A stretch of 46,142 bases of DNA, taken from Escherichia phage ULINTec7. Below are positions 1 to 45,769 of this stretch, piece after piece (position 1 is the first letter of the stretch; every line of letters starts with the position of its first letter). The translations under genes and the position numbers were made by a program. Below the pieces are notes generated by a model that saw only the letters and a program-made list of their open reading frames with translations, had not been told where the DNA came from and did not search any database. The stretch lies in the sequence record MZ997841.1, one strand, 5' to 3'.

Positions 1-634
1 CCATATGGGGTCGGTCGGCGGTTGACCTAGGAATTGGGCGGGGCGGGTCCGTCTTCAACCTGCTGCCGCAGGAAGCTCGACGGGTGGGCGAGGGCTTGCC
101 TTGTACTCGCTTAGTGGTACACAAGGAGAACGCCTAGGAAGCGCTAGGGCACGCCTTAGTATTGGACAAGGTGATTGCCTTAGTTCAACCGCTTAGGGCT
201 TACACGGGCCGTTTTAGGGCCATTCCTGAGCGTTTGACAGGGTGTGAGGGCGTGGGCTATCTGTTCGTTTCGTTCACTCCGCTTGCGCTACGTTCACTCG
301 CTCACGTGTACCTTAGGTTATTCCTTGATGGATAGCTTAGATTAGCCTTAGTGGATTACCTTAGTTAAAGCCTTAGTGCTTCACTTAGTATCAGCTTAGT
401 AGTGTACCTTAGTAAGTCTTAGTGTCTTCTCTTAGTGATTGCACATGCAAGCATGTAAGATGCCATTAGGTCGCGGTCGGTAGACCGCTAAAAGAAGGAG
501 AATAGTAATAAGATGCAGTAGGAGGAACACCAGAAGCCTAGCCAACCTAGCCTATCCTAGCTCTGTATCTATTGCTTTTCCTTAGTCTAACACGTTAGAC
601 AACCTATCTTATTCTTAGTGATGGTAACTTAGTG

Positions 635-2663: not shown

Positions 2664-3548
2664 ATGACTACTGAAAACACCCTTCTGTCTGTTCGTGAAG
2701 CTGCAACCGCTGAAATCAAGCAGCACTTAGACAATATCGGCACTTCTTACATCAAAGTTGGCGCTTGTCTGAATGAATTACGCGGTGATTTCGAAGGTCA
2801 AAAAGACTTTTTAGCTTATGTAGAATCAGAGTTCGGCATCAAGAAGGCACAATGCTACAAGCTGATGAGTGTAGCCCGTGTCTTTGAAGGAGACGAACGC
2901 TTTAAAGGTGTGGCTATGCGTGTAATGCTGGCGCTTGTTCCTTTCGCTGATGAAAATATAATCATGGAGAAGGCCGCAGAACTCGCCGCAGATGGCAAGC
3001 TGGACACTAACGCCGTAAACGCCCTGATTGATCCTAAGAAAGAGACAAAGGCCGAGACGGTACAATCTAAGGCTGAGACAGTAAAACCGCAGGAGAACGC
3101 TACTGAGGCCGCAGAATCACAGGAAATGCAAGCGCCGCAGGTAGTTCCACCCGCTAGCGAGCAGGATGCCGACGAATCAGCACCGTGGGATGAGGAAAGC
3201 AAGCCGGAAGCGCCAAAGGCAGCGCCGCTGGATAACACGGCTAATACCGAAAACGCCGCTATATCTGGCCTACTGGCACAAATTAAGGCACTGACTGAGC
3301 AATTACAGGCAGCTAATGACCGCATCGCCTCCTTAAGTAGTGCACGCGAAAGCAAGAAGGCAGCCGCGCCTATGCTGCCGCAATTCAAATCTTCCTGCTT
3401 CTATGCTCGCTTAGGTTTAAGCGCTGAGGAGGCAACGAAGAAAACAGCAGTTAACAAGGCACGCCGCGAACTGGTTAAGCTAGGCTACGGTGAAGGCCAT
3501 GAAGCATGGCCCTTAATCTCTGAGGCAGTAGAAGAGTTGACTAAGTAA
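2664..3548 (+). CDS. Early protein of unknown function, in the slot occupied by kinase 0.7 in T7
   Basis: 294 aa from the ATG at 2664 (TAAGG 8 nt upstream); the ORF-track start at 2655 is a GTG. No kinase motifs seen. Has a central Ala/Glu/Pro/Lys-rich low-complexity linker. Confidence 0.6.
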   Translation: MTTENTLLSVREAATAEIKQHLDNIGTSYIKVGACLNELRGDFEGQKDFLAYVESEFGIKKAQCYKLMSVARVFEGDERFKGVAMRVMLALVPFADENIIMEKAAELAADGKLDTNAVNALIDPKKETKAETVQSKAETVKPQENATEAAESQEMQAPQVVPPASEQDADESAPWDEESKPEAPKAAPLDNTANTENAAISGLLAQIKALTEQLQAANDRIASLSSARESKKAAAPMLPQFKSSCFYARLGLSAEEATKKTAVNKARRELVKLGYGEGHEAWPLISEAVEELTK

Positions 3549-3611
3549 CCTTATCGGTGGCATCTTCTTAGGTGTCACCTATTAAGGTTTCTTTCACTAG
3601 GAGTAAACAAG

Positions 3612-6239
3612 ATGCAAGACCTACACGCTATTCAACTTCAACTTGAAGAAGAAATGTTTAACGGCGGTATCCGTCGCTTTGAAGCGGACCAACAACGCCA
3701 GATTGCATCCGGTAATGAATCAGACACGGCATGGAATCGCCGCTTATTGTCCGAGTTAATCGCGCCAATGGCTGAAGGTATTCAGGCATACAAGGAAGAG
3801 TATGAAGGTAAAAGAGGCCGTGCACCACGTGCATTAGCTTTCATTAACTGCGTAGGGAATGAAGTAGCAGCATATATCACCATGAAAATCGTTATGGATA
3901 TGCTGAATACAGACGTTACCTTACAAGCCATCGCTATGAATGTAGCCGACCGAATCGAGGACCAAGTACGTTTTAGCAAGCTGGAAGGTCACGCAGCTAA
4001 GTACTTTGAGAAAGTGAAGAAGTCGCTTAAGGCTAGCAAGACTAAATCTTATCGTCATGCGCACAACGTAGCGGTAGTAGCTGAGAAGTCTGTTGCTGAC
4101 CGTGACGCGGATTTCTCCCGTTGGGAGGCATGGCCTAAAGACACCTTGTTGCAAATAGGCATGACCTTGCTAGAAATCTTGGAGAATAGCGTATTCTTCA
4201 ATGGTCAACCTGTCTTCCTTCGTACCTTGCGCACTAACGGCGGAAAGCATGGTGTTTACTATTTACAGACCAGTGAACATGTTGGCGAGTGGATAACTGC
4301 ATTTAAGGAACATGTAGCGCAGCTCAGCCCTGCCTATGCACCTTGCGTTATACCTCCCCGCCCTTGGGTATCACCTTTTAACGGCGGTTTCCACACTGAG
4401 AAAGTAGCAAGCCGTATTCGTCTGGTAAAAGGAAACCGCGAACACGTCCGCAAGCTGACCAAAAAGCAAATGCCAGCGGTTTACAAGGCTGTTAACGCTT
4501 TGCAGGCGACTAAGTGGCAGGTTAATAAAGAAGTTTTGCAGGTAGTAGAGGACGTTATCCGTCTCGACCTTGGTTATGGTGTACCTTCCTTTAAACCACT
4601 CATCGACCGCGAAAACAAACCAGCTAATCCGGTGCCGCTAGAATTTCAGCACCTGCGAGGCCGTGAACTGAAAGAGATGCTAACGCCGGAACAGTGGCAA
4701 TCCTTCATTAACTGGAAAGGTGAATGCACCAAGCTGTACACCGCAGAAACTAAGCGTGGCAGCAAGTCGGCGGCTACGGTCCGCATGGTTGGTCAGGCCC
4801 GTAAATATAGCCAGTTCGACGCAATCTACTTCGTGTATGCACTGGACAGCCGCAGCCGTGTATATGCGCAATCTAGCACGCTCTCACCGCAATCAAACGA
4901 CTTAGGCAAGGCACTCCTACGGTTTACCGAAGGGCAGCGCCTTGATAGCTCTGAGGCGCTTAAATGGTTTTTGGTGAACGGGGCTAATAACTGGGGTTGG
5001 GATAAGAAAACTTTCGACGTGCGCACCGCTAACGTGTTAGATGGTGAATTCCAAGACATGTGCCGCGACATTGCAGCGGATCCTCTGACCTTCACTCAAT
5101 GGGTAAATGCCGACTCCCCTTACGGCTTCCTTGCTTGGTGCTTTGAATATGCGCGTTATCTGGATGCACTGGATGAAGGCACGCAAGACCAATTCATGAC
5201 GCACCTCCCAGTCCATCAAGATGGTAGTTGTTCTGGTATCCAGCACTACAGTGCTATGCTACGCGATGCAGTAGGTGCGAAAGCGGTAAACCTTAAGCCC
5301 TCTGACTCCCCTCAAGATATTTATGGTGCCGTTGCGCAGGTAGTAATTCAGAAGAATTATGCATACATGAATGCAGAGGATGCGGAAACCTTCACTTCTG
5401 GCAGCGTGACTTTAACAGGTGCAGAACTTCGTAGCATGGCTAGTGCGTGGGATATGATAGGAATCACTCGCGGCCTGACCAAAAAGCCTGTAATGACACT
5501 ACCTTATGGCAGCACACGTCTAACCTGCCGTGAATCAGTGATTGATTATATCGTTGATTTGGAAGAAAAAGAGGCCCAACGGGCTATTGCGGAAGGGCGT
5601 ACCGCCAATCCTGTACATCCTTTTGATAATGACCGCAAAGACAGCCTGACACCTAGCGCAGCTTATAACTATATGACAGCTTTAATCTGGCCTTCTATTT
5701 CGGAAGTGGTTAAAGCTCCTATAGTGGCAATGAAAATGATTCGTCAGCTTGCACGTTTCGCAGCTAAAAGAAACGAAGGCTTAGAATATCCCTTACCAAC
5801 TGGCTTCATCTTGCAACAAAAGATAATGGCTACCGATATGCTCCGCGTATCCACTTGCTTGATGGGTGAAATCAAGATGAGTCTCCAGATTGAAACAGAT
5901 GTAGTTGATGAAACGGCAATGATGGGTGCGGCTGCTCCTAACTTCGTCCATGGTCACGATGCTAGCCACCTGATTCTGACTGTATGTGACCTAGTGGATA
6001 AAGGTATTACATCCATTGCAGTCATCCATGATTCTTTCGGTACTCATGCAGGACGTACCGCAGACCTGCGGGATAGCTTAAGGGAAGAAATGGTTAAGAT
6101 GTATCAAAACCATAATGCCCTGCAAAACCTGCTAGATGTGCACGAAGAGCGTTGGTTAGTAGACACCGGAATCCAAGTACCAGAGCAAGGAGAGTTTGAC
6201 CTTAACGAAATCTTAGTTTCAGACTATTGTTTCGCATAA
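3612..6239 (+). CDS. Single-subunit DNA-dependent RNA polymerase (T7/SP6 type)
   Basis: 875 aa with [16 protein letters not shown] and [13 protein letters not shown] motifs matching the T7 RNAP catalytic region. Confidence 0.97.
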
Positions 6240-6313
6240 TATTAATAGGCCATTCCTTAGGGAGTGGCCTTTTTCTTTACCTACTACCTGTAACATTTCA
6301 TTAACATAAAAGT

Positions 6314-6329
6314 GTCTCACATGTGAGAC
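6314..6329. promoter_or_regulatory. Conserved palindrome GTCTCACATGTGAGAC, copy 1
   Basis: Perfect 16-bp palindrome immediately 5' of the promoter at 6331. Confidence 0.6.
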
Positions 6330-6330
6330 T

Positions 6331-6352
6331 TATTTACCGGACACTATAGGAT
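6331..6352 (+). promoter_or_regulatory. Phage-RNAP promoter
   Basis: TATTTACCGGACACTATAGGATAG matches the consensus. Confidence 0.7.
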
Positions 6353-6500
6353 AGCCGTCGGAGACGGGAAAGAAAGGGAAGATAAAGGATATAAAGGAAG
6401 TAATAGGTATTAAAGGTTATATAGGTTATCTAGGAATACCTAGGAATACCTATTACCTTCTTCCTTCCTCTTATTACCACTTAGAGGAAGGGCAGACCTA
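6353..6500. promoter_or_regulatory. AT-rich dyad-symmetric region, candidate primary replication origin
   Basis: Purine-rich arm at 6366-6411 and complementary pyrimidine-rich arm at 6445-6478, with direct repeat TAGGAATACC x2 at 6431-6450. Lies between two promoter copies just downstream of the RNAP gene, the position of the T7 primary origin. Confidence 0.45.
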
Positions 6501-6503
6501 GGT

Positions 6504-6520
6504 TGTCTCACATGTGAGAC
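6504..6520. promoter_or_regulatory. Conserved palindrome TGTCTCACATGTGAGAC, copy 2
   Basis: Same palindrome as at 6314, followed by a promoter-like sequence. Confidence 0.6.
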
Positions 6521-6721: not shown

Positions 6722-7875
6722 ATGGCTATTATTAATAACATCCCATGTCCTCAATGTCAGAAGAATGGACACGATAAATCAGGCAACCACCTTATGATAT
6801 TCGAGGATGGTGCTGGGTACTGTAACCGTGGTCACTTCCATGATAATGGCAGACCTTACTACCATAAGCCTGAAGGGGGCATCGAGATAACCGAGTTGCC
6901 TATTACTGGCAATATCAAATATACACCTTCCCAGTTTAAAGAGATGGAGAAGGAAGGGAAGATTAGCGACCCTAAGCTACGCGCCATCGCACTTGGTGGT
7001 ATGCGTATGAAAGACCGTTGGGAGGTTATGAATGAGCAAGAAAGGGCAGACCAAGAAACAGAGTGGAAACTTGATGTTGAATGGTTCCTCACGCTTAAGC
7101 GTAAGAATCTTGTTTCCCGACACATTCGCGGCGACATTTGCGCATTGTATGATGTACGGGTCGGACACGATGAAGAAGGTAGAGTCTCACGGCATTACTA
7201 TCCACGCTTCGAAAAATGTGAGCTAGTAGGCGCTAAGTGTCGCACATTACCTAAAGACTTTAAGTTTGGTCATTTAGGTAAACTATTTGGTATGCAAGAT
7301 CTTTTCGGTATGAATACTTTGTCTCACGTGTTAGACAAGGGAAGACGAAAGGATTGCTTGCTTATTGTCGGCGGCGAACTGGATGCACTAGCAGCACAGC
7401 AAATGCTCCTTGATTCTGCCAAGGGTACTAAGTGGGAAGGCCAGCCTTACCATGTATGGTCTGTCAATAAAGGTGAGTCTTGCCTTGAAGAGATAGTACA
7501 GAACCGTGAACACATCGCCCAATTTAAGAAGATTATATGGGGTTTTGATGGAGATGAGGTAGGGCAGAAGCAGAATCAGCAAGCGGCTCGCCTGTTTCCT
7601 GGCAAATCCTATATCCTTGAGTACCCTTCTGGTTGCAAAGATGCCAACAAGGCATTGATGGCTGGCAAGGCTAAAGAGTTTGTTGATGCATGGTTTAATG
7701 CCAAGTCATCTGATGAAGTCTTTGGTAGCCAGATTAAATCTATCGCATCTCAAAGGGATAAGCTCAAGGCTGCACGTCCAGAGCAAGGACTATCATGGCC
7801 TTGGCCTAAGCTGAACAAGGTAACGCTAGGTATTCGTAAGAACCAACTTATCATTGTAGGCGCAGGCTCTGGCGT
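6722..7875 (+). CDS. DNA primase-helicase, exon 1 (zinc ribbon, TOPRIM, start of helicase Walker A)
   Basis: CPQC...C..GHFH zinc ribbon and LLIVGGELDALAAQQ TOPRIM resemble T7 gp4. The ORF continues to ...LIIVGAGSGV and then runs into a stop at 7895-7897 within inserted sequence; the proposed exon ends at 7875. Confidence 0.7.
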
Positions 7876-8662
7876 TAACATTAGCGCCGCCATGTAGTAA
7901 TACATGGGCAATAATCGTGTGAACTCAGGGGAAGACTAGAACAGTTAATCCTGAGCCAAGCTAGGCACACCTCAAATTCAAAGGAGGTGTTATGCAATTT
8001 AAAGAAGTACCAGATCACAGTAATTATATTTGTTATGAGAATGGCACGGTTGTTAATCGTAAGACTGGAAAGGTCTTGAAAGAAGATACAACTAACCGAG
8101 GTTATAAGCGGATTACAGTAAGCAAGGGCAACAAGGTAACACGTTGGAGTGTGCACCGTTTAGTTGCTTTACTGTTTATCCCTAACCCTCATAATTATGA
8201 AACTGTTAATCACATATCGGGAGATAAGACGGATAACTCTGTTAGTAATCTTGAGTGGATGAGCCAAGAACAGAACCAAGCCCATGCTAAATATACAGGA
8301 CTGTGTCCTAAAGGTGAGGCTGTTGGCACTAATAAGTTCAAAGAGGCAACTATTCATCAAGTGTGCAAGCTAATAGAGAAAGGTTTATCTCGCGGTGAAA
8401 TTATGAAAGCAACGAGCATCTCTAAAGCAACCTTTGATGACATTCGTAGAAGGAAGACTTGGAAGCACGTATCTTGTTCATATAAATGGTGACAATCTGG
8501 TGTGCCTAGAAGGTGCAACGACTATCCCGAAAGGGAGTACAGCCAAGCGGCTGGAAGCGCACGACACCCATCGTGGGTGATGATATAGTCTGGTCTATAT
8601 GGGGACATATAGCAGTTCATAAGAGAACGGGCGTGGCTTAGCGAACCACGTCGAACATAACG
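7876..8662 (+). mobile_element. Putative group I intron carrying an HNH homing endonuclease ORF, inserted in the helicase Walker A codons
   Basis: The 5' exon ends in U (7875) and the insert ends in G (8662). Exon 3' end GGCGU can pair with intron GCGCC at 7884-7888 (P1 with a U.G wobble). The downstream frame opens right after a stop at 8658-8660 with GKTEF and no start codon. Joining gives the contiguous P-loop GAGSGVGKTEF. Confidence 0.6.
7992..8492 (+). CDS. HNH homing endonuclease (intron-encoded)
   Basis: 166 aa with HRLVALLFIPNP...VNHISGDKTDNSVSNLEW, a typical HNH/AP2-type motif; AGGAGG SD upstream; a paralog of the ORF at 10976. Confidence 0.85.
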   Translation: MQFKEVPDHSNYICYENGTVVNRKTGKVLKEDTTNRGYKRITVSKGNKVTRWSVHRLVALLFIPNPHNYETVNHISGDKTDNSVSNLEWMSQEQNQAHAKYTGLCPKGEAVGTNKFKEATIHQVCKLIEKGLSRGEIMKATSISKATFDDIRRRKTWKHVSCSYKW

Positions 8663-9497
8663 AGGTAAGACTGAGTTCCTTCGTGAAGTAGTTAAGCACC
8701 TCATTGAAGAACACGGTGAATCTGTAGGCATCATTTCTACAGAAGACCCGATGGTCAAGGTGTCCCGTGCTTTTATCGGCAAGTGGATTGATAAGCGTAT
8801 TGAGTTACCGCCAACCAACGACCCGAAAGAAGATGGATACCGTGAGGTGTTCGACTACACCGAGGAAGAAGCTAACGCCGCCATTGATTATGTAGCTGAT
8901 ACAGGTAAGCTGTTTGTGGCTGACCTAGAGGGTGACTATTCGATGGAAAAGGTAGAGCAAACTTGCCTAGAGTTTGAGGCTATGGGCATTTCTAATATCA
9001 TCATTGATAACTTAACGGGGATTAAATTAGATGAGCGTGCTTTTGGTGGGAAGGTTGGTGCACTTGATGAATGCGTCAAGCGGATTGGTACTATCAAAGA
9101 CCGACACCCGGTTACTATATTCCTTGTATCACACCTTACACGTCCTCCGGCAAACCGTACCCAACATGAAGAAGGTGGCGAAGTTATCCTTTCTGACTTC
9201 CGAGGCTCAGGCGCTATCGGATTCTGGGCATCTTACGCCTTGGGGATTGAGCGTAATACAAGAGCTGAAACGCTTGACGAAAGGACTACCACGTACATCT
9301 CATGTGTCAAAGACCGCGACCAAGGTATCTGGACTGGAACCAAGGTCATGCTTAAGGGTGACATTCAAACCGGACGTTTAATGGAACCACAAGCCCGTAC
9401 TAAGTCATTTGATACAGGTGAAGCAAGGCAACAAGAAGTGCCGGATTTACCGGACACTATAGAAGAGACAACCTTTGACGATGAACAGGAGTTTTAA
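8663..9497 (+). CDS. DNA primase-helicase, exon 2 (helicase RecA-like domain)
   Basis: Frame reads GKTEFLREVV... from 8663, through the ORF-track ATG at 8751, to DDEQEF. FLVSHLTRP and SDFRGSGAIGF...LGIERN resemble T7 gp4 helicase motifs. Exon 1 plus exon 2 is 1989 nt, a 662-aa product. Confidence 0.7.
9445..9467 (+). promoter_or_regulatory. Phage-RNAP promoter inside the helicase 3' coding region
   Basis: ATTTACCGGACACTATAGAAGAG matches the consensus. Confidence 0.65.
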
Positions 9498-9658
9498 TGG
9501 AAATTATTAAACCAGTATTGAATATCGGTATTGAGATCCTATTCATGCTTGTGATCGCAGATTATGCTGCACGATATGGATTCAAGAAAGCTGTGAAACT
9601 TATCGTTGCATCTGGTTTTCTTATGTCAATGTTCTTTATTGTAACACGCCTTATCTAG
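9497..9658 (+). CDS. Hypothetical small membrane protein (53 aa)
   Basis: ATG overlaps the helicase stop (TAATG); hydrophobic segments present. Confidence 0.35.
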   Translation: MEIIKPVLNIGIEILFMLVIADYAARYGFKKAVKLIVASGFLMSMFFIVTRLI

Positions 9659-9671
9659 TGTATTTATCAGG

Positions 9672-9695
9672 GCTTGTCTCACATGTGAGACAGGC
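9672..9695. promoter_or_regulatory. Conserved palindromic hairpin GCTTGTCTCACATGTGAGACAGGC, copy 3
   Basis: Extended 11-bp stem around the 16-bp core, located at a gene end. Confidence 0.6.
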
Positions 9696-9730
9696 TCTTA
9701 TTAAGTACATTAAATAACTGGAGATTGATT

Positions 9731-10682: not shown

Positions 10683-10848
10683 ACATAGTCTTAAAATGTT
10701 CGATGGTCATGAAGACCTGCAAGCCAAGATTACTAACCAAGCCTTCCTGTTTGCACAGTTAACTATGGCTGAAGCAAAGAAGAATAGCCTGACGCGTGAA
10801 CAGGTTATCAAGGAAAGTGAAGTGAAACGTAAGATTCGCAGTCGATAA
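10672..10848 (+). CDS. Hypothetical small protein (58 aa)
   Basis: Hand-translated ORF overlapping the end of the upstream gene. Confidence 0.3.
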   Translation: MQNKHSLKMFDGHEDLQAKITNQAFLFAQLTMAEAKKNSLTREQVIKESEVKRKIRSR

Positions 10849-10854
10849 GTCAAG

Positions 10855-10878
10855 GGTTGTCTCACACGTGAGACAGCC
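10855..10878. promoter_or_regulatory. Conserved palindromic hairpin, copy 4 (loop variant CACACGTG)
   Basis: GGTTGTCTCACACGTGAGACAGCC: the stem is conserved while the central dinucleotide differs. Confidence 0.55.
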
Positions 10879-10908
10879 TTTCATCATATTGATTGGAGGA
10901 TTAACTTT

Positions 10909-11016
10909 ATGAATAACTACGACTCTGATTGGGATTTCTACGATTCAATGCAATCTAAACCAGAAAGGAGGGAGGATGAGTTCGAAACAGATCAAATGTA
11001 CGAGGATTTTTACTAA
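10909..11016 (+). CDS. Hypothetical small acidic protein (35 aa)
   Basis: Short ORF that overlaps the start of the HNH gene; weak call. Confidence 0.2.
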   Translation: MNNYDSDWDFYDSMQSKPERREDEFETDQMYEDFY

Positions 11017-11455
11017 CTACATCCTCTACTCTGATGGTCGAGTTCTTAACGAGAAAACCGGACAATATCTAAGAGGTTACTTAGATAAAGATGGGTATCA
11101 TATTATGAATATTAAAGGGAAACACCTTAAAGTTCATCGATTAGTTGCTATCCATTTCATACCTAACCCTAATAATTTACCTGAAGTTAACCATAAAGAT
11201 CATGACCGTCTAAACAATAATGATTGGAATCTAGAGTGGTGTACTCATCAAGATAACAACAAGCATAGCTTACATTTAGTAATAGCTTCTTGTGCTAAAC
11301 GCTATGACTTTATATCACCACAAGGTGTCCATGTAGAAGTCTATAACTTACGTGAGTTTTGTAGGAATAACAACCTACAGCAATCTCATATGGTTAAGGT
11401 GGCTAAAGGTAAAGTAAGACATCATAAAGGTTGGACTAATTATGCTAGATGTTGA
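10976..11455 (+). CDS. HNH homing endonuclease (free-standing)
   Basis: 159 aa with HRLVAIHFIPNP...VNHKDHDRLNNNDWNLEW; AGGAGGGAGG SD; paralog of the intron ORF at 7992. Confidence 0.85.
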   Translation: MSSKQIKCTRIFTNYILYSDGRVLNEKTGQYLRGYLDKDGYHIMNIKGKHLKVHRLVAIHFIPNPNNLPEVNHKDHDRLNNNDWNLEWCTHQDNNKHSLHLVIASCAKRYDFISPQGVHVEVYNLREFCRNNNLQQSHMVKVAKGKVRHHKGWTNYARC

Positions 11456-13988
11456 TTGGAAAGAATTTGGAAAGAATCGCATACTTGTCATGGATGCTGA
11501 AAGTAAAGGTTTACTTGATGCTATCCGATATGGACACCGTGAAGATGTGCATATCATTTGCTGTATGGATTTGCTTACTACCGAGGAGTTTCTCTTCTTT
11601 GACCCGTATGAGATGCGTGACCCTGAAGCAAGAGAACGCCTGAAGGAATGGGAAGGTCATCAAGATGGAACCTTGGTTGACGGTGTTAACTTCCTGAAGC
11701 ACTGTGAGGCTATTGTGTCGCAGAACTTCCTAGGGTATGACGGTCTTCTCTTTGAGAAAGCATTCCCTGATATTTGGAAAGGCTTTAACTATACCGAGAA
11801 GCGCGGTAAGGGCAGACTCCGTGCTGACCTGTGTCCTATCCGTGTTGTAGATACGCTGGTGATGAGTCGTCTGCTAAACCCAGATAGACGCCTTCCTCCG
11901 CAAGCATATGCCAAAGGCATGGGTAACGTCGCCCCTCACTCAATTGAGGCGCACGGCATCCGTATAGGCCGCTATAAACCAGAGAATGAGGACTGGTCTA
12001 AACTAACTGACCACATGGTTCACCGTGTACGTGAAGACGTGGCAATTGGTCGTGACCTTTTCCTATGGCTTTACAACGGAGAGTGGACGGAGCACAAACG
12101 CCGTGGCGTGAATAAACGTACTGGCCTAGGTATTGAGACAGCCTTCCACATGGAGTCCATTGTGGCGCTGGAGATGAGCCGTCAGGCCGAGCGCGGGTTC
12201 CGTCTGGACATCGACAAGGCTTTGTCCCGATGCGAAGAATTGGACGCTAAGATTGACGAGACAGTCGCAGCGTTCCGCCCTCACATGCCTATGCGTATCA
12301 AGTCTAAACCTTTTAAACCGGAAGAAAAGAATGAAGTATGCCAACGCGCAAATGAGTATGGAGCTAGCAACAATATACCTACTGTCCTTGACCCCTCACA
12401 CTTTCTTCATGCCGAGAGACGAGGAGATCGCAAGACAGTATGGAGTGTCACTACTAAGTCTGGTGATTGGTCGGCTAGTGTCAAGAAAGACTTTCCTCAC
12501 CTTAGAGGAAACCGTAATGACACGCCAAGCATCAAGTGGATTGGCGCTTACTCGCCTGTTACTTTCGAAGAGATTCCCTTGGGTAACAGGGATACAGTTA
12601 AGCAAGTGCTCTATGATTATGGATGGAAAGGTGTTGAATTTAACGATACCGAGCAAGCGCATCTCGATGAGCACGGAGTGTTACCCAAACCTTGGAGTGG
12701 TAAGATAAATGAAAAGTCCCTTACTTTATGGCAAGAAAGAGCCGCACGTGAAGGTAAAACAGTCCCTGATTGGTGCTTGGGTATCGCTGCATGGTACATA
12801 CTCGTATCCCGTCGTGGTCAGATACTCAACCGTGGTGACGTTGAAGCCTTCAACGAGAAGGGAACGTGGCCCTCGCAGGCTGGTGTACGAAAGTGTCGCG
12901 GCCTTGTACCTGTAGCATTCAACAAGGAGCTAGGAATCAATGCGCAGCAATACTACGAGAGGTACGGATATTGGCCTACGTCTGACAAAGATGACGGAGA
13001 GTGGCGTGTTCCAGCTGTTGCTATTAGTATTGGCACTTCTACGTTCCGTATGCGTCATCGTAACGTGGTTAATATTCCTGCCCGTGGCTTGTATCCTTTA
13101 CGTGATTTATTCATAGCAGGGAAAGGCAAGCTAATCCTTGGTTGTGACGGTGCAGGTCTTGAACTGCGTGTCCTGTCTCACTTCATGAATGACCCTGAGT
13201 ACCAAGAGATTGTACTGCACGGTGATATTCATACGCATAACCAGATGAAGGCTGGTCTTCCTAAGCGTGATATGGCGAAGACGTTTATATACGCCTTCCT
13301 CTATGGCTCTGGTATAGCCAACCTTGCAGCAGTATGTGGTGTTACTGAGGAGGAAATGAAGGAAGTTGTGGCAAGATTCGAGATTGAACTGCCGTCTCTT
13401 GCACGTCTTCGTGAGAATGTTATCGCACAAGGTAACAAGTTTGGCTACCTGCAAGCACCTGATGGGCATTGGGGTCGCATCCGCATGTCTGGTGGTGAAC
13501 TTAAAGAGCACACTATGCTTAACGTATTACTCCAGATGACTGGCTCTTTGTGTATGAAATATGCATTAGTAAAGGCATTTGCAGTAATGCGCAAGGAAGG
13601 TGTAGCCTTGGATGCTATGGGAAGCCCTTGTGGTGTGGCTAACGTCCACGATGAAATCCAGATGGAAGTTCCTGAAGAAGAGGTCTTGTACCTTAACTAT
13701 GACCTACCTTTCACCTTAGAAGGGTTTGAAACAGAGAAGGCTGCTGTGAAAGCAGTGTTCGATGCAGAAGAGAAACGTGTTCATGTGGATTCTGAAGGAC
13801 GTATGTGGTCTGCTGCAAACCTCGTTAGTGTTGATGCTGATGCTGGTGTACTTCATTGTCAGCGCCGTTATCACCGTGCTGGGCATATCATTGCCGACGC
13901 CATGACTTGGGCTGGTCAGTATCTGAAGATGCGTTGCCCGATGGCAGGAGAATATAAGATTGGCACAAGTTGGAAGGAAACACACTGA
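11442..13988 (+). CDS. DNA polymerase (family A, T7 gp5-like)
   Basis: N-terminal exo motif ILVMDAESKG resembles T7 MIVSDIEAN; GCDGAGLELRVLSHF, GDIHTHNQ...AKTFIYAFLYG and HDEIQ polymerase motifs. Start is uncertain between 11442 and 11490. Confidence 0.93.
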   Translation: MLDVDWKEFGKNRILVMDAESKGLLDAIRYGHREDVHIICCMDLLTTEEFLFFDPYEMRDPEARERLKEWEGHQDGTLVDGVNFLKHCEAIVSQNFLGYDGLLFEKAFPDIWKGFNYTEKRGKGRLRADLCPIRVVDTLVMSRLLNPDRRLPPQAYAKGMGNVAPHSIEAHGIRIGRYKPENEDWSKLTDHMVHRVREDVAIGRDLFLWLYNGEWTEHKRRGVNKRTGLGIETAFHMESIVALEMSRQAERGFRLDIDKALSRCEELDAKIDETVAAFRPHMPMRIKSKPFKPEEKNEVCQRANEYGASNNIPTVLDPSHFLHAERRGDRKTVWSVTTKSGDWSASVKKDFPHLRGNRNDTPSIKWIGAYSPVTFEEIPLGNRDTVKQVLYDYGWKGVEFNDTEQAHLDEHGVLPKPWSGKINEKSLTLWQERAAREGKTVPDWCLGIAAWYILVSRRGQILNRGDVEAFNEKGTWPSQAGVRKCRGLVPVAFNKELGINAQQYYERYGYWPTSDKDDGEWRVPAVAISIGTSTFRMRHRNVVNIPARGLYPLRDLFIAGKGKLILGCDGAGLELRVLSHFMNDPEYQEIVLHGDIHTHNQMKAGLPKRDMAKTFIYAFLYGSGIANLAAVCGVTEEEMKEVVARFEIELPSLARLRENVIAQGNKFGYLQAPDGHWGRIRMSGGELKEHTMLNVLLQMTGSLCMKYALVKAFAVMRKEGVALDAMGSPCGVANVHDEIQMEVPEEEVLYLNYDLPFTLEGFETEKAAVKAVFDAEEKRVHVDSEGRMWSAANLVSVDADAGVLHCQRRYHRAGHIIADAMTWAGQYLKMRCPMAGEYKIGTSWKETH

Positions 13989-14104: not shown

Positions 14105-14202
14105 TGCAAACTGCTTTTATTATTCTTGGTGTCGTATTATTTATGGTAGTACTCTGGGCCTTCTCTGGCATTGACCCGGATTGTGATGGTAACTACGACT
14201 GA
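14104..14202 (+). CDS. Hypothetical small membrane peptide (32 aa)
   Basis: TAATG overlap with the previous ORF; single hydrophobic segment. Confidence 0.25.
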   Translation: MQTAFIILGVVLFMVVLWAFSGIDPDCDGNYD

Positions 14203-14259
14203 GTTATACTCAAGGTCACTTACGAGTGGCCTTTATGAATAACTTAACTGGAGAGTATT

Positions 14260-16495: not shown

Positions 16496-16511
16496 GTCTC
16501 ACATGTGAGAC
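16496..16511. promoter_or_regulatory. Conserved palindrome GTCTCACATGTGAGAC, copy 5
   Basis: Lies 15 nt upstream of the promoter at 16526. Confidence 0.6.
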
Positions 16512-16976: not shown

Positions 16977-16982
16977 TTGATG

Positions 16983-17014
16983 CCCTGTCTGCCTTAGTGT
17001 AGGCAGGGTCTTTT
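16983..17014 (+). terminator. Putative intrinsic terminator
   Basis: Stem CTGCCT/AGGCAG with a 6-nt loop, followed by GGTCTTTTG. Confidence 0.45.
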
Positions 17015-29902: not shown

Positions 29903-32850
29903 TGGCAATTGAGCGACAAGCAGTACAAGGTCTGCCACAAGTGCAGGCCACTTCTCCTAATGTCATGACCTTTGCACCTCAGCAAGCTGGAGGTGTGGAG
30001 GCTGGCGTAGCTTCTACCTCCGGTAGTCGATTTATCGAAGACCTTATTCGAGCAGCCAGTAGTGTAGCTGATGTAACCACTGGTATCCTTAATCAAAAGA
30101 TTGAGGAAGATAAGGTTGTTCAAATGGAACGGGCATATAATGGACTGATGCCTTCTGAGGATGCAACTCGTGGTGGCGCTCGTGCTAACATGCTTGTCAA
30201 AGCTCAACTGCTAGCTAATGATGAAGCAGCACGAATGAAAGACATGGCTACTCGTTTCCAAGGAACAGATGACGAGTGGACACAACTCATGGTTGACTCT
30301 CGTAATGAGATGCAGAATAAGCTGTTCCAGCAATACCCTGAGTTGCAAGGTGACAAAGATACTATGCGTATGGTCACTAATGTCTTCCAAGAACAGCAGC
30401 CTCAAATTTGGGCTACACGAACCCAGCATAAACTTGACCGTGAACAAGCAGACCGTGAGGACACCTTTGACGGGCGAGTGGCTTCTACTTGGGATTCTAG
30501 TATTGACCCAGAGGCTTCTGGTTATGCCCTACAGGAGCGAATCCGCGAGGGGTTTACTCAAGGGCTATTACCTGAGCAGATGCATAAGAAGCTGGTAGAG
30601 CGAGCTATTTCACTTGCTCAGGGTGGTGATATTAGCATGGCTGAAGCCTTGAAGTACGTGAAGGACGACAAGGGTGTTTCTGTCTATGCTAAGAATCCGC
30701 AGCTTATCACAGCTATCACTAGTGGTAATGCAGTTTGGGCTAGGAATAATGTTGCTGATGTGACTCGCATGTCTTTTGAAGTCAAAGAATCCTATCTTGC
30801 AGGTGACTTGACGGATGAAGAATTACTGGAGCGAGCACAGCACATTAATAGCCTGACAGGAAACTCTGTCTTCTCTAATCCAGAACTAGAAGCACTGATG
30901 CGTCAACGAGCTAAGCAGAATGCAGAGCTAGGTGCAATGCAGGATATGCGACGTGAACTTTACTCTGACCGCATGACTGGCTTCCAAGGTAAGACAGATA
31001 AAGAGAAGAAAGCCTACATTGATGTTATCAAACAGGATAGCCAACTATATGCAGACCAGCAAATCAAGCAGCGCGGATTGGACCCTTACAGCCAAGAGGC
31101 TGAAGCTATCCGTGGTGCAGTAGAAGTGCAGCGCCTGCAATTCATGAACTCCAAAGGCTTAGTGGATGATACCTTTGAGTCTCGTATCAAAGCCATGGAG
31201 TCTATGCTATCACCTGAGCACTTCGCTAAAGGCGAACCACAGGAGTTAATGACTATTCGTCAGTTGTGGGAACAGTTACCAGAAGAAAGCCGAGGTGTCT
31301 TTGGTGATACGGTGAATGGCTATATGGATAACTACAACACTGCATTACAAATGGGGGAGACGCCTTTGCAGGCTGCAAGGTTTGCCCGTGAAGCACAGCA
31401 GAAATTCTCTCGTACTGAGAAAGAAACCAAGAAGTTCAACTCAGCTATTGGAGATGCACTGGATGAGGTATCGGGTGCTGGCTGGTTTGATGGTAAAACC
31501 GAAGTGTCTGACTTAGGTAAAGCTATTGCAGAAGAAGAGTTACGAGCTAAGGCCAATATGCTGTGGTCTAGCGGTATGCGTAACATGGATTCCATCAAGA
31601 AGGCTTTAATTACTTGGGGCAATAAACGCTACACTCAATCAGAGGATGCAAAGACTTCCGGTGGTTATTTCATTAAAGGTGATTACACTTCTGCATCTGA
31701 CATGCTTATGTCTGTTGGGAAAGGTGTAAACCCTACCGATGTACCTCTGGCTCTTGGTAGGTATGTAGAAACACAAATGCCAGAATTGAAGAAGGAACTT
31801 CAAGAGTGGGAAACTAAGGATGATGTATACATTGATTACAATGAACAGAAAGGTACTTTCGTGATTCGTGCTGGTGCAGCAGGTCGCCCTCTTTCTGGAG
31901 TAATCCCTGTCACCTCTTTAGATACCACTTCACTGCTAGACTCTGCCTATCAGAAGAAAGTAGAAGAACGAGATAAAGGTGAATATGTTCACCCATATCG
32001 TACAGATATCGGTGCACAAGAACCCATGCCAGCTAAGCCAACTGCCAAGGATATTGGTAAATTTGGACTAGCTAATTTCCTCATGTCTTCTGCCTTTGCT
32101 TCTGGTGAGAACCTACCTTCTAACTTCGAGATTAACTATAGAGGCAATATGCAACAATTCTATGACAAGCTAGCTATGGATGAGAATGGCGATAAGCTGG
32201 GCTTCAACAAAGCCACAGGAACCTTCACACCGTACAAAGATGCACATGGCGAGTCGGTAGGCTATGGTCACTTCCTTACGGAAGAAGAAAAGAGAAATGG
32301 GTACATTAAGATTGGCGACGAACTAGTCCCGTATCGCGGCTCTATGTCTCAGCTCACTGAGAGTAAGGCCCGTGCTCTTATGGAACAAGATGCCAAGAAG
32401 CATGTACCTCCAACTCGTGATTGGAAAATCCCATTCGACCAGATGCATCCGGCACAGCAGCGCGGTTTAATGGATTTAACCTATAACTTAGGTAAAGGTG
32501 GAATCCAGAATGCACCGCGTGCTCTTGCTGCATTCAAGGCAGGTAAGCTTACAGAAGGCTTTATCGAAATGTTGGGTACTGCATCAAGTGAAGGTAAGCG
32601 TATTCCTGGTTTACTGAAGCGACGCGCTGAGGCTTACAATATGGCAGCTGCCGGTGGTGTACCTAAGATTACCGAAGTAGAGACTCGTGAAGATGGGTCT
32701 ATGTGGGTTAAGTTCGGTGGACCTATGCCAGCAGGTTCTGTATCTGCATGGACTCATAAACGTATTGGCGCTGATGGCTGGTATCAGGTTTATGAGGCTG
32801 CACCTACCAAGTTAGCTAAAGGCTCTAAGGTGGGTAAAGTTAAGTTGTAG
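29902..32850 (+). CDS. Internal virion protein with C-terminal lysozyme-like domain
   Basis: 982 aa; C-terminal YKDAHGESVGYGHFLT...LTYNLGKGGI resembles the T4 lysozyme segment YKDTEGYYTIGIGHLLT...MVFQMGETGV. Confidence 0.65.
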   Translation: MAIERQAVQGLPQVQATSPNVMTFAPQQAGGVEAGVASTSGSRFIEDLIRAASSVADVTTGILNQKIEEDKVVQMERAYNGLMPSEDATRGGARANMLVKAQLLANDEAARMKDMATRFQGTDDEWTQLMVDSRNEMQNKLFQQYPELQGDKDTMRMVTNVFQEQQPQIWATRTQHKLDREQADREDTFDGRVASTWDSSIDPEASGYALQERIREGFTQGLLPEQMHKKLVERAISLAQGGDISMAEALKYVKDDKGVSVYAKNPQLITAITSGNAVWARNNVADVTRMSFEVKESYLAGDLTDEELLERAQHINSLTGNSVFSNPELEALMRQRAKQNAELGAMQDMRRELYSDRMTGFQGKTDKEKKAYIDVIKQDSQLYADQQIKQRGLDPYSQEAEAIRGAVEVQRLQFMNSKGLVDDTFESRIKAMESMLSPEHFAKGEPQELMTIRQLWEQLPEESRGVFGDTVNGYMDNYNTALQMGETPLQAARFAREAQQKFSRTEKETKKFNSAIGDALDEVSGAGWFDGKTEVSDLGKAIAEEELRAKANMLWSSGMRNMDSIKKALITWGNKRYTQSEDAKTSGGYFIKGDYTSASDMLMSVGKGVNPTDVPLALGRYVETQMPELKKELQEWETKDDVYIDYNEQKGTFVIRAGAAGRPLSGVIPVTSLDTTSLLDSAYQKKVEERDKGEYVHPYRTDIGAQEPMPAKPTAKDIGKFGLANFLMSSAFASGENLPSNFEINYRGNMQQFYDKLAMDENGDKLGFNKATGTFTPYKDAHGESVGYGHFLTEEEKRNGYIKIGDELVPYRGSMSQLTESKARALMEQDAKKHVPPTRDWKIPFDQMHPAQQRGLMDLTYNLGKGGIQNAPRALAAFKAGKLTEGFIEMLGTASSEGKRIPGLLKRRAEAYNMAAAGGVPKITEVETREDGSMWVKFGGPMPAGSVSAWTHKRIGADGWYQVYEAAPTKLAKGSKVGKVKL

Positions 32851-32862
32851 TACCTAACTCAA

Positions 32863-32888
32863 GGCTTGTCTCACATGTGAGACAGGTC
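32863..32888. promoter_or_regulatory. Conserved palindromic hairpin, copy 6
   Basis: GGCTTGTCTCACATGTGAGACAGGTC, between the internal virion protein genes. Confidence 0.6.
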
Positions 32889-32914
32889 TTTATGATAGGC
32901 ACTATGGAGGAACT

Positions 32915-43285: not shown

Positions 43286-43333
43286 TTTTCTTAAAGGTTA
43301 TCATGATGGTAGCCTTTCAGAAAAGGAGGTTAC

Positions 43334-45769
43334 ATGATTCAAAGACTAGGTTCTTCATTAGTTAAATTCAAGAGTAAGATAGCGGGTGCAATCTGGCGCA
43401 ACTTGGATGACAAGCTCACCGAGGTTGTATCTCTTAAGGACTTTGGGGCCAAAGGTGATGGTAAGACTAACGACCAAGATGCAGTAAATGCAGCGATGGC
43501 TTCAGGTAAGAGAATTGACGGTGCTGGTGCTACTTACAAAGTATCATCTTTACCTGATATGGAGCGGTTCTATAATACACGCTTCGTATGGGAACGTTTA
43601 GCGGGTCAACCTCTTTACTATGTGAGTAAAGGTTTTATCAATGGTGAACTCTATAAAATCACGGATAATCCTTATTACAATGCTTGGCCTCAAGACAAAG
43701 CGTTTGTATATGAGAATGTGATATATGCACCTTACATGGGTAGCGACCGTCACGGTGTTAGTCGTCTGCATGTATCATGGGTTAAGTCTGGTGACGATGG
43801 TCAAACATGGTCTACTCCAGAGTGGTTAACTGCCCTGCATCCAGATTACCCTACAGTGAACTATCATTGTATGAGTATGGGTGTATGTCGCAACCGTCTG
43901 TTTGCCATGATTGAAACACGTACTTTAGCCAAGAACGCACTAACCAATTGTGCATTGTGGGACCGCCCCATGTCTCGTAGTCTGCATCTCACTGGTGGTA
44001 TCACTAAAGCTGCAAATCAGCGATATGCAACAATACATGTACCAGATCACGGACTATTCGTGGGTGATTTTGTTAACTTCTCTAACTCTGCGGTAACAGG
44101 TGTATCAGGTGATATGGCTGTTGCAACTGTAATAGATAAGGACAACTTCACGGTTCTTACACCTAACCAGCAGACTTCAGATTTGAATAACGCTGGAAAA
44201 AGTTGGCACATGGGTACTTCTTTCCATAAGTCTCCATGGCGTAAGACAGATCTTGGTCTAATCCCTCGTGTCACAGAGGTGCATAGCTTTGCTACTATTG
44301 ATAATAATGGCTTTGTTATGGGCTATCATCAAGGTGATGTAGCTCCACGAGAAGTTGGGCTTTTCTACTTCCCTGATGCTTTCAATAGCCCATCTAATTA
44401 TGTTCGTCGTCAGATACCATCTGAGTATGAACCAGATGCGTCAGAACCATGCATCAAGTACTATGACGGTGTATTATACCTTATCACTCGTGGCACTCGT
44501 GGTGACAGACTTGGAAGCTCTTTGCATCGTAGTAGAGATATAGGTCAGACTTGGGAGTCACTAAGATTTCCACATAATGTGCATCATACTACTTTACCGT
44601 TTGCTAAGGTAGGAGATGACCTTATTATGTTTGGTTCAGAACGTGCAGAAAACGAATGGGAAGCAGGTGCACCAGATGATCGTTACAAGGCATCTTATCC
44701 TCGTACCTTCTATGCACGATTGAATGTAAACAAATGGAATGCAGATGATATTGAATGGGTTAACATCACAGACCAAATCTATCAGGGTGACATTGTGAAC
44801 TCTAGTGTAGGTGTAGGTTCTGTTGTAGTTAAAGACAGCTACATTTACTATATCTTTGGTGGTGAAAACCATTTCAACCCAATGACTTATGGTGACAACA
44901 AAGATAAAGATCCATTTAAAGGCCACGGACACCCTACTGATATATACTGCTATAAGATGCAGATTGCAAATGACAATCGTGTATCTCGTAAGTTTACATA
45001 TGGTGCAACTCCTGGTCAAGCTATACCTACTTTCATGGGTACTGATGGTGTTCGTATTATCCCTGCTCCACTTCACTTAGCAGGAGAGGTGGTTGCAGCA
45101 GATATTACTGTCGAACATCTTACCCTGAAGGCAAGTACAAGTGCTGATATTCGCTCAGAGATGCTGATGGAAGGTGAGTATGGGTTTATTGGTAAAACTA
45201 TACCAACGGATAACCCGACAGCCCAACGTGTTATCATATCTGGTGGAGATGGTACAGCAGCAGATAAAGGTGCGCAAATTACCTTACACGGAGCAGGTTC
45301 TAGTACCTCTAGACGCGCAGTATATAATGCCAATGAGCACTTGTTCCAAAGTGGGGCCATTATGCCATACAATGATAACGTGTACCCTGCTGGCGGTCCT
45401 CGTAATAGATTCACTACTATCCACCTTACAAGTGACCCTATTATTACGTCTGATGCCACTCATAAGTACGGCTCACAAGGTATTGATGAGCAAGTACTAA
45501 AGGCATGGGGTAAGGTTTACTTCAAGCAGTACAAGTTGATTGGCGAGATGTCTCGTGGTGTACATCACACTCACTTTGGTGTATTGGCACAAGATATTGT
45601 AGCTGCTTTTGCATCCGAAGGGTTAGATGCAATCGACTTCGGCATTGTCTCCTTCGAAGAAGGTCAGTTTGGTGTTAGATATAGTGAAATCTTAATCTTG
45701 GAAGCTGCCTATACTCGCTATCGTCTTGATAAATTAGAGGAGATGTATGCCGCTAATAAAATCAGTTAA
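43334..45769 (+). CDS. Tailspike 2: endosialidase-like (endo-N-acetylneuraminidase) with C-terminal intramolecular chaperone domain
   Basis: 811 aa. Two Asp-box motifs, SGDDGQTW and SRDIGQTW. N-terminal DFGAKGDGKTNDQDAVNAA. C-terminal TSDATHK...GVRYSEILILEAA chaperone-like region. AAGGAGG SD. Confidence 0.8.
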   Translation: MIQRLGSSLVKFKSKIAGAIWRNLDDKLTEVVSLKDFGAKGDGKTNDQDAVNAAMASGKRIDGAGATYKVSSLPDMERFYNTRFVWERLAGQPLYYVSKGFINGELYKITDNPYYNAWPQDKAFVYENVIYAPYMGSDRHGVSRLHVSWVKSGDDGQTWSTPEWLTALHPDYPTVNYHCMSMGVCRNRLFAMIETRTLAKNALTNCALWDRPMSRSLHLTGGITKAANQRYATIHVPDHGLFVGDFVNFSNSAVTGVSGDMAVATVIDKDNFTVLTPNQQTSDLNNAGKSWHMGTSFHKSPWRKTDLGLIPRVTEVHSFATIDNNGFVMGYHQGDVAPREVGLFYFPDAFNSPSNYVRRQIPSEYEPDASEPCIKYYDGVLYLITRGTRGDRLGSSLHRSRDIGQTWESLRFPHNVHHTTLPFAKVGDDLIMFGSERAENEWEAGAPDDRYKASYPRTFYARLNVNKWNADDIEWVNITDQIYQGDIVNSSVGVGSVVVKDSYIYYIFGGENHFNPMTYGDNKDKDPFKGHGHPTDIYCYKMQIANDNRVSRKFTYGATPGQAIPTFMGTDGVRIIPAPLHLAGEVVAADITVEHLTLKASTSADIRSEMLMEGEYGFIGKTIPTDNPTAQRVIISGGDGTAADKGAQITLHGAGSSTSRRAVYNANEHLFQSGAIMPYNDNVYPAGGPRNRFTTIHLTSDPIITSDATHKYGSQGIDEQVLKAWGKVYFKQYKLIGEMSRGVHHTHFGVLAQDIVAAFASEGLDAIDFGIVSFEEGQFGVRYSEILILEAAYTRYRLDKLEEMYAANKIS

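Follow-up and report, generated by a model that had tools for sequence, protein, structure and literature searches.

A recurrent 16-bp palindrome caps three predicted T7-type RNase III processing hairpins in the genome of Escherichia phage ULINTec7

The palindrome and its three extended hairpins

The window analyzed here, a stretch of 46,142 nucleotides from Escherichia phage ULINTec7 (MZ997841.1), is 90 to 98% identical at the DNA level to Vectrevirus phages (K1E/K1-5 group, Molineuxvirinae, SP6 branch of the T7 supergroup). All of its long open reading frames (ORFs) lie on the + strand, among them a single-subunit RNA polymerase (RNAP) gene at 3612-6239, and it contains 11 phage promoters of the type ATTTACCGGACACTATAG. 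The primase/helicase gene, which in K1-5 is a single unbroken gene of 662 aa, is interrupted in the window (parts 6722-7897 and 8751-9497), and the insert that splits it carries an HNH endonuclease ORF (7992-8492; HNH_3 plus HTH_7). An Rfam search of the window at gathering thresholds retrieved no match. The relatives used for comparison were K1-5, SP6, Klebsiella phage KPN7, RCIP0089, Njord, and about 50 viral-contig loci.

A palindromic core, GTCTCACNNGTGAGAC (GTCTCAC-NN-GTGAGAC, with up to two mismatches), occurs eight times in the window, against 0.10 occurrences expected, and none of 100 shuffles reached eight (Table 1). The initial annotation had recognized this repeat but counted six copies, which is too few. 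The lone half-site GTCTCAC is found three times, close to the expected count, and is thus neither enriched nor avoided. Three of the copies, referred to below as sites E, F, and H, had been described as extended hairpins at gene ends, and each of them indeed directly follows a stop codon. Their sequences are exactly as first reported (9672-9695, GCTTGTCTCACATGTGAGACAGGC; 10855-10878, GGTTGTCTCACACGTGAGACAGCC; 32863-32888, GGCTTGTCTCACATGTGAGACAGGTC), including the replacement of CATG by CACG in the copy at 10855. Immediately 3' of site F is a second HNH endonuclease ORF (10976-11455), missing in many relatives, which extends into the beginning of the DNA polymerase gene (11442-13988).

Table 1. 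Palindrome copies and related hairpins in the window, with their setting, folding on the + strand, and score under covariance model R1 (built from T7 RNase III sites)
Feature	Coordinates	Strand	Core start	Parts or sequence	Setting	R1 score	Fold	Basis
Core-only variant	585..600		585	GTCTAACACGTTAGAC	Left end; 34 nt 5' of sigma-70-like -35 box (635)			
Two-tier hairpin	3543-3598	+			Between gp6-like ORF and RNAP gene	16.1 bits, E 0.036	z -6.4	
Core-only palindrome	6314..6329		6314		2 nt 5' of phage promoter 6332-6351; 44 nt 3' of canonical terminator 6247-6270		z -1.0	
Core-only palindrome	6505..6520		6505		5 nt 5' of phage promoter 6526-6545		z -0.2	
In-gene copy	7321..7336		7321	GTCTCACGTGTTAGAC; frame G TCT CAC GTG TTA GAC = S H V L D	Primase/helicase ORF			
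Site E, two-tier hairpin	9656..9717	+	9676	Lower stem 9660-9666/9702-9708; internal loop 9667-9668/9699-9701; upper stem 9669-9681/9686-9698; loop 9682-9685	3' of small ORF ending 9658; 30 nt 5' of ATG 9731	Rank 3; 19.6 bits, E 0.0032 (rough calibration)	-25.3 kcal/mol, z -8.0	Folding, models R1 and R2, covariation
Site F, two-tier hairpin	10839..10900	+	10859	Lower stem 10839-10847/10887-10895; upper stem 10852-10864/10869-10881; loop 10865-10868 (CACG)	3' of TAA 10846-10848; 5' of ATG 10910	Rank 4; 19.1 bits, E 0.0044 (rough calibration)	-19.8 kcal/mol, z -4.8	Folding, models R1 and R2, covariation
T7-like RNase III hairpin (canonical), without palindrome	14199..14250	+		ACUCAAGGUCACU-UAC-GAGUGGCCUUUAUGA	Between DNA polymerase gene and next ORF	Rank 1; 43.6 bits, E 1.5e-10		Best R1 match, fold
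Core-only palindrome	16496..16511		16496		15 nt 5' of phage promoter 16527-16546			
Site H, two-tier hairpin	32848..32909	+	32868	Lower stem 32848-32856/32896-32904; upper stem 32861-32873/32878-32890; loop 32874-32877		Rank 2; 36.0 bits, E 3e-8	-21.1 kcal/mol, z -4.4	Folding, T7 consensus, model R1, covariation
Two-tier hairpin	43287-43335	+			Between two tailspike genes	17.1 bits	z -4.5	

RNA folding of the extended sites gives a two-tier structure, with a 13-bp upper stem closed by a CAUG or CACG tetraloop, several G.U pairs, an internal loop, and a lower stem of 4 to 9 bp. The 11-bp stem originally proposed would leave an impossible loop of 2 nt, and the fold has a 4-nt loop instead. The opposite strand of the three sites folds far worse (-12.7 to -15.2 kcal/mol). 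The internal loop of site E is UC/UAU (2/3), with flanks UUAUC...CUCUUAUUAAG, whereas site F is flanked by AGUCAAGG...CCUUUCAUCA and site H by ACUCAAGG...GUCUUUAU|GAU, also given as ACUCAAGG-stem-GUCUUUAUGAU. When all eight copies were folded, the three extended sites folded strongly, whereas the five core-only copies did no better than shuffles and no extended stem or larger RNA structure was supported around them. The description of the palindrome as a hairpin holds for the three extended sites; at the other five it behaves as a half-site sequence element rather than a structure.

Covariation was examined in alignments of 17 to 25 distinct relatives per site, with counts taken over distinct sequences. 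At site H, 99.7% of the cells are paired and eight pairs are compensated, which none of 500 shuffles reached; the corresponding values are 98.6% and eight for site F (reached by 1 of 500 shuffles) and 95.2% and five for site E (31 of 500), where the lower stem is weaker, with 87.9% of cells paired. In slid-partner controls, pairing falls to 20 to 47% of cells. The lower stem of site H occurs as CCUA/UAGG, GUCAU/AUGAC, and UGAUAA/UUGUCA, and that of site F as UCGAUA/UAUUGA in the window, UUAAUA/UAUUAA in SP6, and GUAAACA/UGUUUAU in locus L144, all of which pair. The core itself pairs at these sites in each of 46 distinct relative sequences, in 41 by Watson-Crick pairs alone and in the other 5 with the help of a + strand G.U. 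Reading of the individual sequences suggests that the register of the palindrome in relatives shifts by about 1 bp at the extended sites.

Both stems thus covary at all three sites, in the comparison across relatives that the initial annotation had proposed. Given the compensatory stem changes, together with G.U pairs that can form on the + strand alone, selection at sites E, F, and H acts on the + strand RNA structure, and this structure is considerably larger than the palindrome. The earlier suggestion of selection on a folded RNA is borne out by these changes, which affect both the extension of the stem and its lower tier, but not by the single loop change from which it had been argued, which is weak ground.

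Resemblance to the RNase III sites of phage T7

Escherichia coli RNase III substrates typically comprise two helical turns, with internal loops that confine cutting to one strand (PMC1540722; PMC3867540). At least 11 bp are needed between the cut and the loop, and extra pairs between the distal box and the loop leave the cut position alone (PMC1540722; PMC3867540); in one case, 4 bp added there did not move the cut site, and cleavage of a single strand leaves protective 3' hairpins (PMC1540722). The polycistronic transcripts of T7 contain ten RNase III sites (PMC6938266). At sites E, F, and H the helix between the predicted cut and the loop amounts to 13 bp plus the loop bases, above the 11-bp requirement (PMC1540722). 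The proximal pairs are A-U, A-U, and G-C, as in T7, and the equivalent of the distal box is G-C plus U-A versus U.G plus U-A, in a register that varies by about 1 bp.

The T7 sites R0.3, R0.5, R1.1, and R18.5 read ACUCAAGG, a stem-loop of 9 to 10 bp, and CCUUUAU|GAU inside the lower stem, and in the T7-site consensus a 4/5 internal loop (ACUC/UAUGA) separates a lower stem of 9 bp from an upper stem of 10 bp. Site H matches this consensus, with ACUCAAGG, the upper stem, and CUUUAU|GAU, and has the 4/5 internal loop. Site F conforms to the basal consensus in part, and site E departs from it. The T7 sites were placed by the coordinates of Dunn and Studier (1983). These coordinates agree with the genes for which the sites are named, with the hairpins themselves, and, for R1.1, with the GCAA loop and UA/UG distal box known from the literature. 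That tetraloop and distal box, described for the R1.1 hairpin by Pertzev and Nicholson (PMC1540722), are both present in the R1.1 hairpin that went into the model described below.

Model R1, a covariance model trained on five RNase III sites of T7 and nothing else, was used to scan both strands of the entire window with filtering disabled. Its best match is a canonical T7-like hairpin without the palindrome, and sites H, E, and F follow in second to fourth place (Table 1), with the middle 10 nt of the palindrome handled as an insertion at the loop. R1 also recovers T7 sites outside its training set, R6.5 at 47 bits and R1.3 at 19.7 bits, and since R1.3 was not trained on, scores of about 19 bits lie within the range of true sites. 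In SP6, K1-5, and KPN7 it finds site H at 36 to 49 bits, and sites E, F, and H are probably orthologous across the SP6 group. The reverse search used model R2, built from SP6-group orthologues of site H only. On the T7 genome R2 gives exactly six matches at E<1, and all six fall on known RNase III sites (R18.5, R1.1, R0.5, R0.3, R6.5, and R4.7). Within the window R2 scores site E at 61.4 bits and site F at 49.5 bits, and it matches the core-only palindromes over their 16 nt only. The structure, its strand specificity, the covariation, and this reciprocal similarity to T7 sites are all shown by these analyses.

The hairpin at 14199-14250 has orthologues in K1-5 (12509-12561) and SP6 (12223-12274). 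Since this site lacks the palindrome, and five palindromes lack an RNase III context, the processing signal and the palindrome are separable. Two further two-tier hairpins, at 3543-3598 and 43287-43335, are matched by R1 at lower scores. The former resembles site E in its UUAUC, upper stem, and UAUUAAG arrangement, its 2-nt/3-nt internal loop, its 7-bp lower stem, and its position before a gene start, but its upper stem is an ordinary one of 10 bp that lacks the palindrome, and it scores weakly under the T7 model.

The extended hairpins might instead be terminators or attenuators, acting on the host RNAP (intrinsic) or on the phage RNAP (T7 class I type), with release or pausing setting the ratio of upstream to downstream message. 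Each consists of a stable hairpin with a U-rich stretch on its 3' side (UCUUAUU, UUUCAUCAU, or UCUUUAUGA), and in MK373771 a hairpin identical to that of site E (L001:8643-8666) is annotated as a rho-independent "putative transcriptional terminator, ARNOLD, -11.7." That U-rich stretch is itself part of the structure, however; it forms the 3' side of the internal loop plus the lower stem, and it covaries with the 5' side. The initial annotation was correct in noting the lack of a clean U-run: a simple stem-plus-T-run scan (U in at least 5 of 8 positions) passes none of the three sites, whereas the genuine terminators of this genome, at 6247-6270 and 16982-17009, pass. T7 RNAP also responds to a class II pause/termination signal, ATCTGTT on the non-template strand, and this signal is absent from the sequences read at the three sites. 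PMC11347151 (2024) gives the number of SP6 RNAP terminators as seven, with citation of the SP6 genome papers; SP6 has seven intergenic copies of the palindrome, which may be the same set. Against the terminator reading, all three hairpins match in sequence the RNase III sites of T7, whose role is not termination. Termination as the role of these hairpins is accordingly judged very unlikely, and the evidence points to the label in MK373771 as a mis-annotation of an RNase III signal.

Processing by RNase III is preferred over termination because the T7-trained model ranks sites E, F, and H second to fourth and the reverse model finds the T7 RNase III sites. We therefore propose, with a probability of about 0.8, that the three sites are T7-type RNase III processing signals in polycistronic + strand transcripts. 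RNase III processing had been one of the readings offered initially, and for these predicted sites it is strongly supported by the reciprocal searches against T7; the other, pausing or termination of the phage RNAP, gained no support. Such signals are a known kind of element and are ordinary for a phage of the T7 supergroup. Several points count against this reading: sites E and F score only about 19 bits under R1 and have internal loops unlike the 4/5 loop of T7, the lower stem of site E is less completely paired, the upper stem exceeds that of T7 by 3 bp, and the distal-box equivalent has G-C in place of U.G. It also leaves the shared 16-mer, in which the top of the stem equals the promoter-proximal and in-gene copies, unaccounted for. 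A search of the literature for transcript-end data on this phage found none.

By analogy with T7, the hairpins, lying a few bases 3' of a stop codon and 20 to 40 nt 5' of the next ribosome-binding site, would be bound by host RNase III over about two helical turns of duplex. The internal loop would distort the helix such that a single cut is made on the 3' side of the loop. At site H the cut is predicted after U32893 in CUUUAU|GAU, 21 nt before ATG 32915; at site E it would fall in the 3' loop, around 9699-9701, and at site F at about 10886. A stable hairpin tail would thereby protect the upstream message against 3' exonucleases, and the downstream message would begin with a new, short 5' leader that retains the ribosome-binding site. 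The 16-nt palindrome would cap the upper stem, bringing its length to 13 bp from about 10. That cleavage takes place in vivo, exactly where the cut falls, and how mRNA stability is affected are what we infer from this analogy.

If so, RNase III-based processing of messages would be common to the branches of T7 and SP6, the ACUCAAGG...CUUUAUGA motif included, and the label of RNase III processing signal would be merited by sites E, F, and H and by their orthologues in about a hundred public genomes of the SP6 group. Such relabeling would alter models of operon structure and mRNA stability for phages used in therapy against K1-capsule strains and for those that serve as sources of RNA polymerase. 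T7 is able to grow without RNase III (PMC6938266), and for this reason the selection on RNase III sites is not fully understood.

The palindrome at promoters and within genes

The palindrome is kept at the same places across genera, with a sequence that depends on the lineage: GTCTCAC..GTGAGAC in Vectrevirus and Era103-like phages, GTC(T/C)AAC..GTTGGAC in SP6 and KPN7 types, GTCTAGT..ACTAGAC in RCIP0089, and GTCTACA..TGTAGAC, in 11 copies, in locus L153. The last (IMGVR_UViG_3300027711_000003) is a distant relative with 55% helicase identity, in which the 11 copies of GTCTACA-NN-TGTAGAC lie within 22 kb and have an unconstrained center; its palindrome at L153:16478 is flanked by a GCUGAU...AUCAGC lower stem, followed by the promoter-like CCACTATAAGAGA. 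The copy at the left end of the window (585) has syntenic counterparts in K1-5, SP6, and others.

Pairing within the palindrome differs between the two classes of site. At sites E, F, and H, neither C.A nor true mismatches occur among the 46 distinct sequences, whereas the 111 core-only sequences comprise 63 with Watson-Crick pairs only, 16 with a + strand G.U, 16 with C.A, and 16 with a true mismatch (Fisher p = 5e-6; distinct sequences are not phylogenetically independent). The true mismatches are combinations of two valid half-sites, as in GTCTCAC..GTTAGAC. Half-sites retained near promoters where pairing is lost, the pattern expected of an operator, are found at the five core-only copies; sites E, F, and H are always paired and have no adjacent promoter. 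This suggests that the core-only copies keep half-site sequence rather than pairing, as would a DNA element for a candidate binder. An RNA role for all copies had been considered from the T.G asymmetry of the SP6 core (GTCTAAC..GTTGGAC); it was set aside when the wider sample showed C.A at core-only sites, and it holds only for E, F, and H. Recognition by primase (5'-GTC), considered for the invariant GTC...GAC ends, stays a speculation, and it leaves the conservation of the inner half-site unexplained.

The copy at 7321 lies within coding sequence, and a perfect palindrome there would need a TGA stop. Among 25 distinct relatives its codons AAC/CAC, GTG, and GAC are invariant, while the neighboring Val, Asp, and Gly codons vary freely. 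The left arm changes from Asn to His, matching the half-site of the lineage, and the right arm cannot follow, as this would make the TGA stop. Because the synonymous sites of this copy are frozen, selection at the nucleotide level is required. In relatives, in-gene palindromes encoding S-(N/H)-V-L-D in the same frame, with frozen synonymous positions, occur in the primase/helicase gene and in the RNAP gene of Zindervirus-like genomes (for the latter, e.g., L138:4964, L139:8364, and L144:5622). The window's own RNAP-gene copy has decayed to CGCTAACGTGTTAGAT, with Ser changed to Ala, near codon 489.

A palindrome without a function of its own was also considered, namely a short patch spread or homogenized among intergenic hairpins by recombination between related phages. 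In near-identical Vectrevirus genomes the other core, GTCCAAC..GTTGGAC, is found at a single site with unchanged flanks, a four-base swap that looks like patch recombination and in which the core type moves as a unit. Swapped cores are present at site F of K1-5 (L002:9570), at site H in three genomes (L165:4167, L156:4072, and L167:4167), and at site E in one (L130:3222). Hybrid half-site copies, found at the left-end site, likewise resemble crossovers at the center of the palindrome. The maintenance of copies at syntenic places across genera and the frozen synonymous sites within a coding region both argue against mere spreading, which we regard as improbable.

Alternatively, the palindrome could be a double-stranded DNA site for a dimeric phage or host protein (an operator, insulator, or origin element) with the half-site GTCYMAC and a 2-bp R-Y center. 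Five of the eight copies are core-only, and of these three end shortly 5' of phage promoters and one lies 5' of a sigma-70-like promoter (Table 1); the chance of three in five falling so close to promoters is about 5e-7 by our own estimate from the promoter count. The half-sites remain valid where pairing is lost through C.A or a true mismatch (32 of 111 distinct core-only sequences against 0 of 46 at E, F, and H, in counts that are not phylogenetically independent). The in-gene copy combines frozen synonymous positions with a left arm that follows the half-site of the lineage, the center of the palindrome is always R-Y, and the distant relatives RCIP0089 and locus L153 carry their own palindrome outside RNase III-like hairpins. 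On the other hand, searches of the early and middle ORFs against Pfam, PHROG, and PDB identified no binding protein: among 20 such ORFs, no DNA-binding family was found besides the HNH endonucleases, which are absent from many relatives, and PDB sequence searches gave no match for a palindrome binder, novel folds being invisible to searches of this kind. A binder would also have to tolerate two core types in one genome (site F of K1-5), and a DNA site leaves the covarying extension and lower stem at E, F, and H unaccounted for. A protein-binding site is quite possible, if short of probable, and the same can be said of its corollary, that the three extended copies sit harmlessly in the tips of RNase III hairpins, the 16-mer and the hairpin differing in function.

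From these sequence patterns we tentatively suggest that the 16-bp palindrome (GTCYMAC, R-Y center) may be a DNA-level element for a putative sequence-specific binder in SP6-group phages. It would be placed 5' of early host-type promoters and of some phage promoters, would bracket an origin-like region after the RNAP gene, would be kept in the primase gene (and in some genera the RNAP gene) against synonymous drift, and would be lodged in the tips of three RNase III hairpins. If this is true, the palindrome marks an unstudied layer of control at promoters and at the probable replication origin, and a regulatory or replication system without a T7 counterpart, of which related lineages have their own versions (GTCTAGT.. 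and GTCTACA..).

The promoter-proximal palindromes are arranged alike in SP6-, KPN7-, and Era103-type relatives. Between the two promoters that follow the RNAP gene, and flanked by two palindromes, lies a purine- and AT-rich stretch with inverted repeats (6352-6504), which occupies the same position as the primary replication origin of T7. The equivalent region of RCIP0089 contains three palindromes and a tandem repeat of ten CTATAGTAAG units (L005:14630-14730).

Comparison with known systems

Like the intrinsic terminators predicted by ARNOLD, as annotated in MK373771, sites E, F, and H present a stable hairpin and a U-rich stretch, but they lack an uninterrupted U-run, and their U-rich stretch pairs and covaries with upstream sequence. 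T4-type phages carry promoter-stem-loop cassettes (PeSLs). These may resemble the copies at 6314, 6505, and 16496 in being short conserved hairpins beside a phage promoter, repeated through the genome and located at module boundaries. They differ in belonging to another phage group, with another polymerase and another order of elements; in the window the palindrome stands 5' of the promoter.

A further comparison is with the RNase III sites of T7. The hairpin at 3543-3598 shares with T7 R1 its position before the RNAP gene. Sites E, F, and H share with R0.3, R0.5, R1.1, R4.7, R18.5, and R6.5 a two-tier hairpin with an internal loop, in an intergenic position on the transcribed strand shortly 5' of a ribosome-binding site, and site H has in addition the basal ACUCAAGG...CCUUUAU|GAU. 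They differ from the T7 sites in an upper stem of 13 bp rather than 9 to 10 bp, in a CRYG loop in place of the GCAA-like loop of T7, and in the diverged internal loops of E and F. The top of their stem, unlike that of T7 sites, is a perfect 16-nt palindrome that is common to all three and also occurs elsewhere in the genome.
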